A stretch of 64,000 nt of DNA from assembly GCA_963762565.1 (NCBI GenBank), contig CAVXLD010000004.1, forward strand, positions 96,001 to 160,000, read 5' to 3'. Position numbers and translations under genes: made by a program. Positions 43,388 to 48,240 of this stretch are shown here, in pieces. The notes beneath the pieces are model-generated. The model did no database searches and had not been told where the DNA came from. It worked only from the letters and a program-made list of their open reading frames with translations. This stretch comes from an uncultured Verrucomicrobiae bacterium (GTDB lineage: Bacteria; Verrucomicrobiota; Verrucomicrobiia; Chthoniobacterales; JAFAMB01). Position 1 is the stretch's first letter. Every line of letters begins with the position of its first letter.

Positions 43388-45406
43388 ATGGCGGATCCCC
43401 TCCCCTCGCTCGATCTTCGTTTAACGCCCGATTGGCTAAAGGAATCGGAATCGGCAAACCGTTACGCGGATTATGCGGACGTAGAACCCGAGGGTCGAGG
43501 CAATCGGGCCCGAAGGGAAAGACGCGACGACCGACCGGGTCGGCCAACTCAGAATCGCCAACGGCGAGATGGAGGTCCCGGAGGTCCCGCTCGGCGGAAC
43601 GCCACCGGTCAAAATCGTCCGGCTTCAGCTTCACAGACGCGGCCGGTGCGGCCACCCGGCCAATCGAACCGAGACGCATCCTCACATCCTGAACGAGTTA
43701 GCGACGGAGCCCGCCGGGGCCGCGACGAACCAGTTCAGGACCAAGTCGAGCCGGCAGCCGTTCAGGTGGACTTTTTGCCAGAGGAACGCGCTTTCTCAAA
43801 AGTGATCCAACAGATCAAGCAGGGGCACGCTGCTTATCCGTTATTTGGTCTGGCAAGGATGTTCCTGGAACGACCGGAGCGGCACCGGGTCCGGATCCGT
43901 TCCCTGAACGATTCGGTAATGATCTATCAGCTCAGTGACGATGGTCCGGTAGCGATGGAGATGTCCGCCCTGGAGCGAATCGCGTTTAGCGAAAAAAAGG
44001 ATGACTTTTATACAAGCGATATCGTTGAAAAGGAGCCAATTAAGGGAAATTTCACTTCCGTAGCCCGGTGTGGCCTTTCCGGACGGCTGCTCGGACCAAC
44101 GAATTATCATACTTTTCAGAAGGTAATCCGTGCTCTGTACGAACAGCGATTTAGCCGGCGGATGAGTTTTGAGGAATACCGCCGCAGTATCGAGATCACG
44201 AGCGACCCGGAATTGGTTAACCAATGGAAAGAAGAAGCTCGTAAGATCGTCACCTACACGACAAAAGATGAGGAGAATCCTGCTGCTTTTGAAAGCGCGG
44301 CAGCGATGGAGCAACATTTCCGGGTCAATCACCTCGAGAAATTGATCAAGCCCTGTTTGGCCGCCGAGGTATCGGGAGACGTCGCCCGCCATCTTCCCGA
44401 CCGCTCAATTATTGCAGCCATTCGCCGGGCCCGCGAACGGGAAAATCGGTTCCCGGCCCAGATGGCAGGAGCGCTTCGACACGGCTTAAATCAGGCCGGT
44501 TTGCATGTGTTCAAACACAAGAAACGCATTCTCTACATCTCAACGATCCGGCCTCAACTCTTTGACCCGAACCAAGCCAAAGTGTCGCCGGGCTTGGAAG
44601 CGATACTCGCGACTCTGCGATCTTACCCCAGAATTACCCGGAAACAGTTGGCGGAGAAGGTCCTGAAACGGCTGCTGGGCGACAAGAGTACCGACGACCA
44701 ATCGCCCGAATACCAACAGGCAAAAAATATTCTGCCGACGGATTTGCTTTGGTTAGCAAAAGCGGGCCATGTGATTGAGTTCGCTGATGGCACCCTAGAC
44801 TTGCCTTTACCGCCAAAAATGGTCGAGAAACCGGGTGCGAGCCAAGAGCCCGACGCTCAAGAAGAGGCCGCCACAGATGAGGCATATGAGGCCGAAGGCG
44901 CAACAGAGGTCGTAACTACCGAAGAACCTGCACGCGACGTCGAGGCGGCAACACAAGCGCCTATCGAGCATGCGCCGGTTGACCAACAAGCGGTTGAGGA
45001 GCATGCGCCGGTTGAACAACTTGAAGAGCACGCGACCATTCAAGAGCACGCTCGGGTTAAGGAACACCCAACTGTCGAAGCGCATGCAACCGTCCAAGAG
45101 CACGCTCCGATTGAGGAACACCCAATTGTCGAAGAACACGGAACCGTTCAAGAGCACGCCCCGGTTAATGAACAGGAGATTCAGGCTACCGAAAGCGTAG
45201 TAACTGAGGCGCCGCTCAATCCGGAACCGGAACCAGCTTCCAAGGAGTCTTCAAACCCCAAGGTAGAATCCGCCGAAGCCGGCCAAACGCTGACTTCCGC
45301 TGGCTCAGAACCTGACGGAAGCACGCCGGTCGAGCCGGCGGCCCTGACCAAAAGTCACGACCAAAGTCCCACCACCAAAGCGGAGTGGGCGACCGCGGAG
45401 TCGTAA
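43388..45406 (+). CDS. Hypothetical protein: Arg-rich N-terminus, globular core, acidic tail with EH(A/P)xV hexapeptide repeats
   Basis: 672 aa ORF with ATG start. Confidence 0.85.
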   Translation: MADPLPSLDLRLTPDWLKESESANRYADYADVEPEGRGNRARRERRDDRPGRPTQNRQRRDGGPGGPARRNATGQNRPASASQTRPVRPPGQSNRDASSHPERVSDGARRGRDEPVQDQVEPAAVQVDFLPEERAFSKVIQQIKQGHAAYPLFGLARMFLERPERHRVRIRSLNDSVMIYQLSDDGPVAMEMSALERIAFSEKKDDFYTSDIVEKEPIKGNFTSVARCGLSGRLLGPTNYHTFQKVIRALYEQRFSRRMSFEEYRRSIEITSDPELVNQWKEEARKIVTYTTKDEENPAAFESAAAMEQHFRVNHLEKLIKPCLAAEVSGDVARHLPDRSIIAAIRRARERENRFPAQMAGALRHGLNQAGLHVFKHKKRILYISTIRPQLFDPNQAKVSPGLEAILATLRSYPRITRKQLAEKVLKRLLGDKSTDDQSPEYQQAKNILPTDLLWLAKAGHVIEFADGTLDLPLPPKMVEKPGASQEPDAQEEAATDEAYEAEGATEVVTTEEPARDVEAATQAPIEHAPVDQQAVEEHAPVEQLEEHATIQEHARVKEHPTVEAHATVQEHAPIEEHPIVEEHGTVQEHAPVNEQEIQATESVVTEAPLNPEPEPASKESSNPKVESAEAGQTLTSAGSEPDGSTPVEPAALTKSHDQSPTTKAEWATAES

Positions 45407-45465
45407 GTGGCGAGGCGTGAGAAGTGATTGGTGATTGGTGAATAGTGATTGGTGGCGGCGATGCC

Positions 45466-45704
45466 TTGGTAGGGCGAGGCTCCCGAAAGACGCAAAGCTA
45501 ATGCCAGCGCTCGACCTGTTTCGACGCTGAAGAATAAGGGTGCGCTGACAATCGTGCCGAGCCGTTTCGCCTGATGTGGCAACTTCCGGGGTGTGCACCT
45601 GCTATAGACCACGGCTCGGCGCATGTATCGGTGCGGCAAAAGATGGATTCGTCAGAACTGCCCTCCTTTGCGAGGCTTTCTAAGTCTTTTGGGAGCCTCG
45701 CCCC
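45466..45704. repeat. REPIN-like element whose right arm is interrupted by the IS
   Basis: ttggtagggcgaggctcccgaaagac at 45466; right arm gtcttttgggagcctcgcccc ends at 45704 and resumes as accaaaa at 47315. Confidence 0.88.
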
Positions 45705-45839
45705 CCTATGGTGTTGTCAAGCTACCCAGCGTGTTTTTAGCGGTTTGTCATCTTTTGTAGAGCAACGTAGTTGCCAAAATTTTTAGTTCAGAGATCGAGC
45801 CGGTTTGCGACGGTTGGTACGTTTCCTCTTGTGGCTCAT

Positions 45840-46150
45840 GTCTCCGAGCTCGATTGGGACAAGGCAGCCTCCTATCCGGCCTGTCAGGGTTTGACAGCGC
45901 AAGATGCTCTATACGCATCGCTCAAGAGGAACGAGCGCGCCCAATCTACCAACGGGCTTTTAAAGCCCAGGGGCGAGCACGAGCGCGCGCCGTTCCAAAG
46001 TCCAGAGTTAAAATGTTTAGTCTAGTGCTGTGTCAGCTTCTCCCTTAACCATGGGGCCTCTTTAGAGGCGCCAGCTTGCTCCTGTTTCCCCCGAACCGGG
46101 GTTTGGGGCAGAGCCCCAAGTTAAAACCCGAGTCTTCGGGTCACTTCTAA
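45840..46150 (-). ncRNA. Predicted bridge/seek RNA of the IS1111 element
   Basis: Target-binding stem-loop at 45928-45996 and donor-binding stem-loop at 45846-45923, with guide segments matching the insertion site and the circle junction. Exact transcript ends are unknown. Confidence 0.8.
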
Positions 46151-46157
46151 AATGGTT

Positions 46158-47264
46158 TTAGCCCTCGATCATGATGAGACCCAATTGCTGGGCAGTAATA
46201 CGACCGGTTTGTAGCCGCCAGATATCGACGATCAGTTGCCGGCCGATGGCCACCACGGCTTTTTTCTTCAGTCCTCGGTTAGAGCCCTCCAGTAGCTCAC
46301 GCCATTTTTGCACCGCTTTATACTCGGGCTGGAAGAGGATCATCCGCCAGACCATCTCGGTGATGATGCGCCGCAGAGCCGGTAGTCCCACTTTGGTGAT
46401 TGCACCCAAGCGTTGGCTCTCTCCGCTGCTCCATTCACTGGGCACCATCCCGGCTAAGCAGCCGATCTTGCGTTCAGTTGAGTAAAGATTCCAATCCAGT
46501 ACTTCAGCATTCAATTGCGCCAAGCTGGGAGCTCCCATCCCCTTTGGCCGTGGGCCTTGGTACTGCTTGGTTAGCTCTGCCTTGGCTTGCTCAATTTGCT
46601 GGTCTAGCTCGCGTAATATCCCAACCCAGCGACCAAGATGTTTTACAATCCAAGGCGCCACCCCCTTGCTTAAGTGCTCAAAAGCTTTGGGCCGCCACCA
46701 ATTGCTCCAGCTCTGGTAGCCCTGGCTCAGCAAAAGGGAGTTGCCCATGACGCCGATGCGCTGGCGTTCTTGCACCAGCGCATCGTGCTGGCGACTTTCC
46801 ACTCGAGCCTGCTCTTGAGCCTCCCTCGGTATTCTGACCAGTTGCAGCGCTTGCTCATTGCCATTGAGATAATTGCTCAGATCACTGGTTAAGGTTCGCG
46901 CATCAATTGAGTTGTTCTTGCCCCGCTTCCTCTTCTGCTCTCCGCTGCGGGGTGCACAGACCAGGCACTCAATCCCGCTTGCCTTTAACTGCCGATACAG
47001 CGAGTACCCCAGCGGCCCGGCTTCGTAGACCACCACCACTTCCTTGGCTTGCTCTCGCTGCTTCTCAACGTAAAGCAACAACGCTTCCTTGCTCCCGAAT
47101 GTCTGGGCTACTCCCACAGCCCCGTTATCGATCTTGCGGGCCGCCTGATAGCTCTTTAGGTGCGCATCGACTCCCAGCACGATCCGGTTTGCCTTCGCTT
47201 CCTTTTGGCTGTTCTTTTCCTGGCTTACGGCGGTCGGTGCCGCCTTGAGTTTGTATTCAATCAT
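46158..47264 (-). CDS. IS110 family recombinase (RuvC-like DEDD domain plus Tnp_20 domain)
   Basis: LGVDAH, YEAGPLG, KNNSIDA, AGMVPSEWSSG, ITKVG and AVVAIGRQL. Confidence 0.95.
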   Translation of the reverse strand: MIEYKLKAAPTAVSQEKNSQKEAKANRIVLGVDAHLKSYQAARKIDNGAVGVAQTFGSKEALLLYVEKQREQAKEVVVVYEAGPLGYSLYRQLKASGIECLVCAPRSGEQKRKRGKNNSIDARTLTSDLSNYLNGNEQALQLVRIPREAQEQARVESRQHDALVQERQRIGVMGNSLLLSQGYQSWSNWWRPKAFEHLSKGVAPWIVKHLGRWVGILRELDQQIEQAKAELTKQYQGPRPKGMGAPSLAQLNAEVLDWNLYSTERKIGCLAGMVPSEWSSGESQRLGAITKVGLPALRRIITEMVWRMILFQPEYKAVQKWRELLEGSNRGLKKKAVVAIGRQLIVDIWRLQTGRITAQQLGLIMIEG

Positions 47265-47427
47265 TGTTTGTCAGGCTGCTGTTGATCCGGCAGCCTGACA
47301 ACACCATGGCATCTACCAAAAGAGGGGCCCCGCCCCAAATCACCAATCACCAATCACCTTTCACCTCTCATCTCTCACCCTCCCCCTCCCCCTTGCCCCC
47401 ACCCCCCTCCTCCCTTATGGGTTAGGG

Positions 47428-48240
47428 ATGCGCATTGTCCGTTACCTGGCACAGGATGGAAACGTTCGCCACGCTGCAGAACAGAAGAACGGCACCTGCC
47501 TCGATATTCTCGGCGACCTGCTTCATAGCTTCGAAGTGACAGACCGGGAAGCCAAGATGGTGAAAATGCTGTCACCGATCGAGCCGCGAGTCATCCTCGG
47601 CATTGGGCTCAACTACCGAGGGCACGCTCAGGAACAAGGGATCCAGCTTCCTCAACGCCCTATGCTTTTCATAAAGGCGCCCAATAGCCTCTCCAATCCC
47701 GGCGATCCGATCGTGATTCCAACCCGTCTCCCCAGCACTGAAGTCGATTATGAAGGCGAGTTAGCGGTGGTGATCGGTCGCGATTGCAAGAACGTGAGTA
47801 AGGCTAACGCCCTCGACTTTGTCCTTGGCTATACTATCGCAAATGACGTCTCGGCCAGAGATTGGCAGAAAAAATTCGGCGGAGGCCAATTTTGCCGGGG
47901 AAAAAGCTTCGATACATTTGCCCCCATGGGGCCGGTCCTGGTCACGAAGGACGAAATTCCGAACCCCGGTGAGCTGCACCTTCAAACTCGAGTTAACGGA
48001 GAAAAACGTCAGGATACTAATACCAGCGATCTGATCTTTGATGTACCTGCTTTGATCGAGTTCTTGAGTGGCTCCACAACGTTGTTGGCCGGATCGGTTA
48101 TTTTGACGGGTACACCCAGTGGGGTCGGAAATTACATGAACCCGCCTCAATACCTGAAGGCGGGTGACGTGGTTGAGATCGAGATCGAAAAGATAGGGGT
48201 TCTAAGTAATCCCGTGACGGTCGAGGACAAGTATGGATGA
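47428..48240 (+). CDS. Fumarylacetoacetate hydrolase family protein
   Basis: GLNYRGH, DYEGEL, NDVSARD, GKSFDTF and TGTPSGVG. Confidence 0.95.
   Translation: MRIVRYLAQDGNVRHAAEQKNGTCLDILGDLLHSFEVTDREAKMVKMLSPIEPRVILGIGLNYRGHAQEQGIQLPQRPMLFIKAPNSLSNPGDPIVIPTRLPSTEVDYEGELAVVIGRDCKNVSKANALDFVLGYTIANDVSARDWQKKFGGGQFCRGKSFDTFAPMGPVLVTKDEIPNPGELHLQTRVNGEKRQDTNTSDLIFDVPALIEFLSGSTTLLAGSVILTGTPSGVGNYMNPPQYLKAGDVVEIEIEKIGVLSNPVTVEDKYG

Follow-up and report, generated by a model that had tools for sequence, protein, structure and literature searches.

We analyzed a window of 64,000 nucleotides from an uncultured soil Verrucomicrobiota bacterium (contig CAVXLD010000004.1, positions 96,001 to 160,000 of the forward strand). 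The window contains an insertion sequence whose recombinase gene is followed by a non-coding region with short words that recur at the insertion site and at the ends of the element. In window positions, the features are as follows.

47313..47319, minus strand: left junction, made up of the TTGGT half of the target (47315-47319) and a copy of the AG core (47313-47314)
45705..47314, minus strand: whole insertion sequence, 1610 bp with the 2-nt core counted once
47289..47307: left-end arm of the subterminal inverted repeat (pair I1, 19 nt, 89% complementary to 45708-45726)
46158..47264, minus strand: recombinase gene, 368 aa plus stop; open reading frame with PF02371 and a weak PF01548 match
46088..46119, minus strand: pair of short G+C hairpins, past the stop codon and before the target domain, kept in relatives at ~65% protein identity
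45824..45996, minus strand: predicted bridge (seek) RNA with target- and donor-binding domains, ~173 nt, from folds and from a 51-sequence alignment with its consensus fold
45928..45996, minus strand: predicted target-binding domain, with an outer stem, an internal loop holding two guides, and an inner hairpin (45953-45969)
45970..45977, minus strand: predicted 5' target guide, CUCGCCCC, complementary to the 8 nt after the element, at 45697-45704 in minus-strand reading
45944..45952, minus strand: predicted 3' target guide, UUGGUAG (45946-45952), and the AU that follows it (45944-45945)
45902..45907, minus strand: predicted 5' donor guide, GCAUCU; its complement is the core with the 4 nt that open the left end
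45867..45875, minus strand: predicted 3' donor guide, AUAGGAG (45869-45875), then GC (45867-45868); same sense as the final 5 nt of the right end with the core
45708..45726: right-end arm of the subterminal inverted repeat, with TTGACA inside it reading toward the element end
45691..45704, minus strand: right half of the interrupted REP-like target, GGGGCGAGGCTCCC, identical at all 4 copies of the element

Read on the minus strand, the insertion sequence starts with AGATGCC and finishes with CCATAGG. Beyond the repeat arms it extends by 3 nt on the right and, on the left, by 5 nt and the core. These ends have the form by which we recognized IS1111 elements, namely, subterminal inverted repeats of about 7 to 17 bp with short terminal extensions. 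The distribution of non-coding sequence, with 453 nt 3' of the gene versus roughly 48 nt 5' of it, is also that of an IS1111 element, in which the long non-coding region lies downstream. Using positions 45705-47312 as a 1608-bp query, we found four copies in the genome, a 6.1-Mb assembly of 15 contigs. The three further copies show 100% identity wherever they align (in one of them the alignment begins only at query base 9), and all four have the same junctions, with TTGGTAG on the left and GGGGCGAGGCTCCC on the right. In the copy at C9:30251-31858 (locus L004), the first eight bases are replaced by four others; having lost the left-end sequence that the donor guide would read, this copy is probably immobile. 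A solo piece on contig C6 (about 44490-44540, plus strand) resembles the last eight bases of the right end. It is placed between a partial REP start of the G variant (described below) and a full REP right half and may be the remnant of a deleted copy.

Several other observations concern the ends and the surroundings of the element. The TTGACA in the right-end repeat (45711-45716, minus strand) is a perfect, outward-facing -35-like hexamer. In a circular form it would point toward the left end, lying 16 nt ahead of CATGGT, and could contribute to a junction promoter with a weak -10 element; a promoter scan of the linear element found no sigma-70-like promoter. No circle junction was found in contigs from four DNA runs. 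One metagenome contig, from run X1, joins position 45707 to 47318 and thereby the right flank to the left flank, skipping 1610 bases. This joint skips exactly the length of the element but sits 3 nt off the precise excision product, and the joined form is absent from the assembled genome. A search of 41 genomes, including the element's own, with the left flank gave no readable orthologous empty site; in genomes of the same genus, the neighboring gene matches at 75-83% identity, without conservation of the intergenic REP. A terminator-like G+C hairpin with a T run after it (47336-47324, minus strand) lies just upstream of the insertion point, and a similar GGGCCC..T-rich context occurs at two other copies of the element, which may mean that the preferred REP subclass follows terminators. 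For the two short hairpins at 46088-46119, processing and protein binding are both possibilities.

The recombinase belongs to the IS110 family by several measures. It scores 46.4 bits against PF02371, the C-terminal transposase domain (cut-off, 21.3), and 28.3 bits against PF01548, the N-terminal RuvC-like domain, just under the cut-off of 29. Its motif residues are D36, E81, N118, and D121, together with G272..P275....S280-G281. Within the latter motif, G--P----S/T-G, which contains the conserved nucleophile, G272, P275, and G281 are invariant, while residue 280 is serine here and threonine in most relatives. A structure model with a mean pLDDT of 70.3 retrieved IS621 (8WT6 and 8WT9) and ISCro4 (9T56) chains as its top 10 matches among PDB structures (E values of 5e-8 to 8e-7, probability of 1.00, 352-375 aligned columns), which places the protein in the IS621 fold of RuvC, coiled coil, and Tnp. 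TM-scores were low (0.26-0.31), probably owing to domain placement. A sequence search of the PDB with the recombinase returned nothing at an E value of 0.01, and the best tblastn matches in a plasmid collection were 26-33% identical to it. Taken with the subterminal repeats and the 3' region, these data bear out the IS1111-type assignment proposed in an earlier note that was made from the sequence of the window.

One catalytic position departs from the expected pattern. Two annotated IS110-family transposases, 27-29% identical, have the counterparts of D36, E81, and D121, and the third DEDD position is Asn118, in the context KNNSIDA versus KTDxxDA in the annotated relatives (codons K116-N117-N118 at 46908-46916, minus strand). 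Asparagine occupies this position in 43 of the 45 clade members with intact reading frames; aspartate does so in one (L053). In IS621, according to the available text of PMC11208158, the equivalent residue, D102, hydrogen-bonds the glycine beside the catalytic serine, and its mutation abolished activity. By analogy, Asn118 could keep that hydrogen bond. The clade offers a handle on the question of whether the third DEDD residue needs to be acidic.

The target of the element is a repeat of the host. The genome contains 488 members of a REP-like family, GGT[A/G]GGGCGAGG, of which 239 have A and 249 have G, and the flanking consensus differs slightly between the two variants. The sequence TTGGTAGGGCGAGG was counted at 117 sites. 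The view, put forward in the earlier note, that the element is programmed against a host REP family is supported.

The words that suggest an RNA guide lie in two stem-loops downstream of the recombinase stop codon. On the plus strand, positions 45970-45977 read GGGGCGAG, the reverse complement of the flank at 45697-45704, and CTACCAA at 45946-45952 is identical to the flank at 47313-47319. Both words sit in the internal loop of the target domain, on either side of the inner hairpin (45954-45960 paired with 45962-45968). The earlier note had described this loop, its outer stem at 45928-45996, and the identity of its words with the insertion flanks, and each of these points was upheld. The AU after UUGGUAG is handshake-like: it matches the two bases with which the element's left end begins. 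At this position, 66 of 76 aligned rows have AU, eight have GU, and two have UU. The second loop carries, in plus-strand reading, AGATGC at 45902-45907 and CTCCTAT at 45869-45875, with an inner hairpin between them (45881-45886 paired with 45892-45897). As had been claimed, these words match the element ends together with the core, GCAUCU at the left end and AUAGGAG at the right end. The same claim had placed the words and the inner hairpin correctly and had given the loop too small an extent, 45846-45923: the closing stem of the donor domain pairs about 45930-45923 with 45831-45824, and it is common to all relatives. Judged from sequence matches, each loop thus holds two guides that read opposite strands and overlap at the core, one loop for the target and one for the donor.

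Such an arrangement is not expected by chance. All four guide words occurred together in none of 20,000 dinucleotide-preserving shuffles of the 453-nt 3' region, and both target words occurred together once in those shuffles. Folding of the minus-strand RNA, which the earlier note had suggested as a check, showed it to be more stable than shuffled sequences (z = -3.2, 0 of 100 shuffles; z = -3.5, 0 of 200 shuffles). An Rfam scan of 45400-47600 at E values up to 1 assigned no family and gave two chance-level matches only. In both the minimum-energy and the consensus folds, GCAUC is paired with GAUGC (45919-45915) in an invariant hairpin, and part of AUAGGAG is tied to a downstream run; neither of these donor-guide helices has covariation. 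Because of the GCAUC/GAUGC pairing, the donor loop as modeled in silico does not form a clean internal loop.

To characterize the conservation of the RNA and its guides, we collected relatives with protein-seeded scans, which yielded 11 loci from species genomes and 78 from metagenomes; the sources were Verrucomicrobiota genome bins and soil metagenomes. In the structure test, which used 51 distinct aligned sequences, the target domain behaved as a conserved RNA. Its 18 pairs were paired in 99.3% of cells, compared with 37-61% when partners were slid, and no shuffle gave a covariation score as high as the one observed. Compensatory changes were found at 4 of the 18 target-stem pairs (e.g., AU 27 and GC 22 at one pair; UA 20, CG 16, and UG 14 at another). 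At four positions, G-U pairs are fixed in 49 to 51 of the 51 sequences. On the opposite strand these would be A-C mismatches, and the structure can therefore be assigned to the gene-strand transcript. The donor domain is almost invariant across the 51 sequences and provides no covariation for its fold.

The target guides change with the insertion site. The target loop could be located by its stem sequences in 72 of the 89 loci, the others being cut by a contig end or lacking the motif, and in these 72 loci the eight bases past the 5' stem strand track the eight bases past the element. Among the guide classes, each given as 5' guide and right flank, are the following.

CTCGCCCC, right flank GGGGCGAG
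TTCGCCCT, right flank AGGGCGAA
CTCGCCCT, right flank AGGGCGAG
CCCACTCT, right flank AGAGTGGG
CCTACTCT, right flank AGAGTAGG
CCCGTCCC, right flank GGGACGGG
CTCTCCCT, right flank AGGGAGAG
CTCACCCT, right flank AGGGTGAG

We evaluated this relationship at the level of classes, taking one modal flank for each of 11 guide classes and permuting flanks among them. The 5' guide and the right flank were complementary at 84 of 88 positions, against a permuted mean of 58.9, and none of 100,000 permutations reached 84. This was the covariation in homologues that the earlier note had named as a check, and the target loop passed it. The 3' guide tracked the left flank more weakly (33 of 49 positions versus 24.9 when permuted; 1,297 of 100,000 permutations as high), with clear pairs in GGAAG-gggaag, TTCCAG-ctccag, and TCGGTAG-gcggtag. 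Misses between guide and flank, at one to three positions each, were seen at two sites of the CCCACTCT class and at L062, L085, L047, and L050. Altogether, pairing each guide with its 45-nt right flank gives 56 distinct combinations among the relatives. A sister subfamily at ~65% protein identity (L012, L049, L055-L066, L072, L083, L085, and L088) has been retargeted to a different G-rich repeat, with GGGAAG on the left and AGAGTGGGGG on the right; both of its target guides have changed and its donor guides have been kept. With 11 guide classes and at least four repeat types, the relatives form a natural reprogramming series.

The donor guides and the element ends are invariant in the relatives, apart from the last base of GCAUC[U/A], whose alternation follows no change in the element ends; AUAGGAG is the same in all 51 aligned sequences. 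Since the donor loop and the ends never vary, it is the sequence match that supports the donor half of the system.

We consider it highly probable that the locus is an active or recently active insertion sequence of the IS1111 group whose 3' region encodes a bridge (seek) RNA. The anatomy of the element, the sequence matches, the covariation of the target guides with their flanks, and the RNA-type covariation of stems in the target loop are observed. By analogy with the family, the RNA would be made and bound by the recombinase, the chemistry would be that of related elements, and the donor loop would read the joined ends. In such a scheme, the RNA would probably be co-transcribed with the recombinase message, as in IS621 and ISEc11. 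A recombinase tetramer would then bind the RNA and hold two DNAs at once. The target loop would pair with both strands of the REP-like site, CUCGCCCC with the strand that carries GGGGCGAG and UUGGUAG with the strand opposite TTGGT plus the core, and the donor loop would pair likewise with the joined ends of the excised element. Exchange would take place at the 2-nt core, AG on the gene strand and CT on the plus strand of the window. If the site is read in the frame that the guide order sets, the plus strand of the window is the top strand. In that frame, the parts are as follows.

Core: CT, as in IS621
Target: left arm CTCGCC, right arm ACCAA
Donor: left arm ending in CAT, right arm beginning with CCTAT

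The two bases that end the left donor arm, and not those of the target, are complementary to the AU after UUGGUAG.

Alternatively, the matches in the 3' region could exist at the level of DNA, as protein-binding sites or recombination scars that encode no guide. The invariance of the donor domain is what a protein-binding site might show. However, the half-matches lie on opposite strands around a hairpin, the stems keep their pairing through compensatory changes, and the fixed G-U pairs at four positions (49 to 51 of 51 sequences) are a strand-specific signature of RNA; moreover, the arrangement equals that of IS1111 RNAs shown experimentally, as described in the accessible parts of PMC11187229. 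We regard a DNA-level origin as very improbable. We give equally little credence to the possibility that the 3' structure does no more than regulate or terminate the transposase message and resembles the flanks incidentally. Hairpins do follow the stop codon, and the small RNAs of ISPpu9 are regulatory and were once proposed to tune the transposase, according to the text seen of PMC12288879. Against this, none of the 100,000 permutations across 11 guide classes matched the flanks as well as the observed guides, and none of the four terminator-like sites reported by a terminator scan falls inside the RNA region. Both a chance origin of the guide words and a simple terminator were rejected by the shuffles, the guide-flank covariation, and the stem covariation.

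It is also conceivable, though unlikely, that the RNA is real and that the copies in this genome are immobile relics of old, inherited insertions. The left end is damaged in one of the four copies, the third DEDD residue is asparagine, and the four DNA runs yielded no circle-junction contig. But where the four copies align, their identity is 100% (one lacks its first 8 nt), and the 56 distinct guide and right-flank combinations among relatives speak for mobility. The retention of asparagine in 43 of 45 clade members likewise points to function rather than decay.

The core of the site differs between donor and target in the subfamily to which the window's element belongs. Its 5' guide ends in CC rather than CU, and at 23 of 24 distinct sites a G rather than an A adjoins the right end. 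Both junctions are known at 19 sites, and every one of these combines AG on the left with GG on the right. L069 is the exception in this subfamily, with AG on both sides. A second subfamily (guide CCCGTCCC) has G at three of four sites. In contrast, where the 5' guide of a subfamily finishes with U, the right junction carries AG in 28 of 28 cases and the left one carries AG wherever it is readable. The identical core in donor and target that would be expected of such a system was not found here.

We then asked which variant of the repeat the element occupies. At three sites in its own genome, the flanks were G-variant-like, with log10 likelihood ratios of +2.06, +3.19, and +1.56 compared with a 95th percentile of 1.41 for A-type repeats, by a classifier that is 72% accurate and that scores the A-core L069 as G-like. 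Downstream flanks scored positive, that is, G-variant-like, at 17 of 21 sites. Because the flanks of occupied sites resemble G-variant REPs, the target core is read as CC and the donor core as CT. The alternative that the 117 TTGGTAGGGCGAGG sites are the empty targets and that the right-hand GG was inherited from the donor was dropped, given that the G variant is equally common (249 versus 239 copies) and that the occupied flanks are G-variant-like.

If the element cuts as IS621 does, the top-strand product would keep the target core with the left target arm and the donor core with the left donor arm. The observed junctions have the pattern expected from the top strand alone, and the reciprocal pattern was seen at none of the 19 sites. 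A full double-strand exchange would leave mismatched cores, which without biased repair would segregate at about 1:1 after replication. One possible explanation, which we hold tentatively, is that a U-to-C change at the core position has altered the 5' target guide, that the element sits in the G variant of the REP, and that the top strand alone decides the product; the one-strand part leans on the classifier of 72% accuracy, on distinct sites from related genomes, and on the assumption that mismatch repair is unbiased. Two IS110 preprints, in the text available from them, propose a single-strand transfer model from in vitro work. Were the same to hold here, natural insertions would provide population-level evidence for IS1111-type bridge recombination decided by a single strand, and identity of the cores would not be required. 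The subfamily offers a handle on whether donor and target cores must match and on which strand decides the product. In a limited search of the partly accessible IS110/IS1111 literature, we found no description of unlike donor and target cores.

The class of system to which this element belongs has been known since 2024, as the earlier note recognized in pointing to the IS1111 seekRNAs, and such RNAs are predicted for most IS1111 elements (93% of the ISfinder-catalogued elements examined, according to the portion of PMC11208160 that was available). The accessible text of PMC11187229 describes an IS1111 seekRNA that derives from the 3' non-coding region, is recovered together with the transposase on purification, and is needed for movement, and whose guides are ordered with the top-strand match 5' of the bottom-strand match. 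Like ISEc11, ISPa11, ISKpn4, and ISPst6, as described there (Siddiquee et al. 2024), the window's element has a long 3' non-coding region, subterminal inverted repeats, and the S/T-G motif. Its predicted RNA shares with those seekRNAs the succession of stem, internal loop, and hairpin, the guide order, and the overlap of the two matches in the target, and its length of ~173 nt is near the 145-170 nt of the "long seekRNA" in the same source. Natural retargeting between close relatives is common to both. It differs from those four elements, in the details that the source provides, in its Verrucomicrobiota host and its different repeat target, and it is known from sequence alone; the figure of 26-33% identity given above refers to matches in the plasmid collection and not to these four elements themselves.

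The comparison with IS621 extends to the sites. In the available text of PMC11208160 (Durrant et al. 2024), each IS621 loop carries a pair of guides, one reading the bottom strand on the left of the core and the other the top strand on its right, and the core is part of all four guides. According to PMC11208158 (Hiraizumi et al. 2024), again as far as its available text goes, cleavage of the top strands falls 3' of the CT core, and a phosphoserine link is formed to the next base. The window's element likewise has four predicted core-including guides in two loops, a CT core in the frame set by the guide order, REP targets, and the same recombinase fold. A further likeness lies in the handshake reported for IS621 in the text seen of PMC13626964 (Hiraizumi et al. 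2026), in which an RNA AU meets a donor AT and pairing is gained only after top-strand exchange: here, too, AU after the top-strand target guide matches donor AT. Unlike IS621, however, the RNA lies 3' of the gene, the frame of the site is inverted relative to the gene, and long subterminal repeats are present. The recombinases are 13-17% identical in structural alignment, and the equivalent of D102 is asparagine. Moreover, the cores are CT in the donor and CC in the target in the window's subfamily, whereas the published IS621 accounts, in the parts available, describe CT as conserved in both.

ISPpu9 and ISPpu10 of Pseudomonas putida resemble the window's element as IS110-family members that insert at AG within a REP, often in REP clusters, as reported in the accessible part of PMC12288879. 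By the same source, they are of the IS110 group, without long subterminal repeats and with the bridge RNA upstream, unlike the element described here. This IS1111 member looks to be undescribed. It is a fully readable natural bridge-RNA system in a phylum and a recombinase clade far from those that have been studied and thus a useful specimen of a general principle that is already known.
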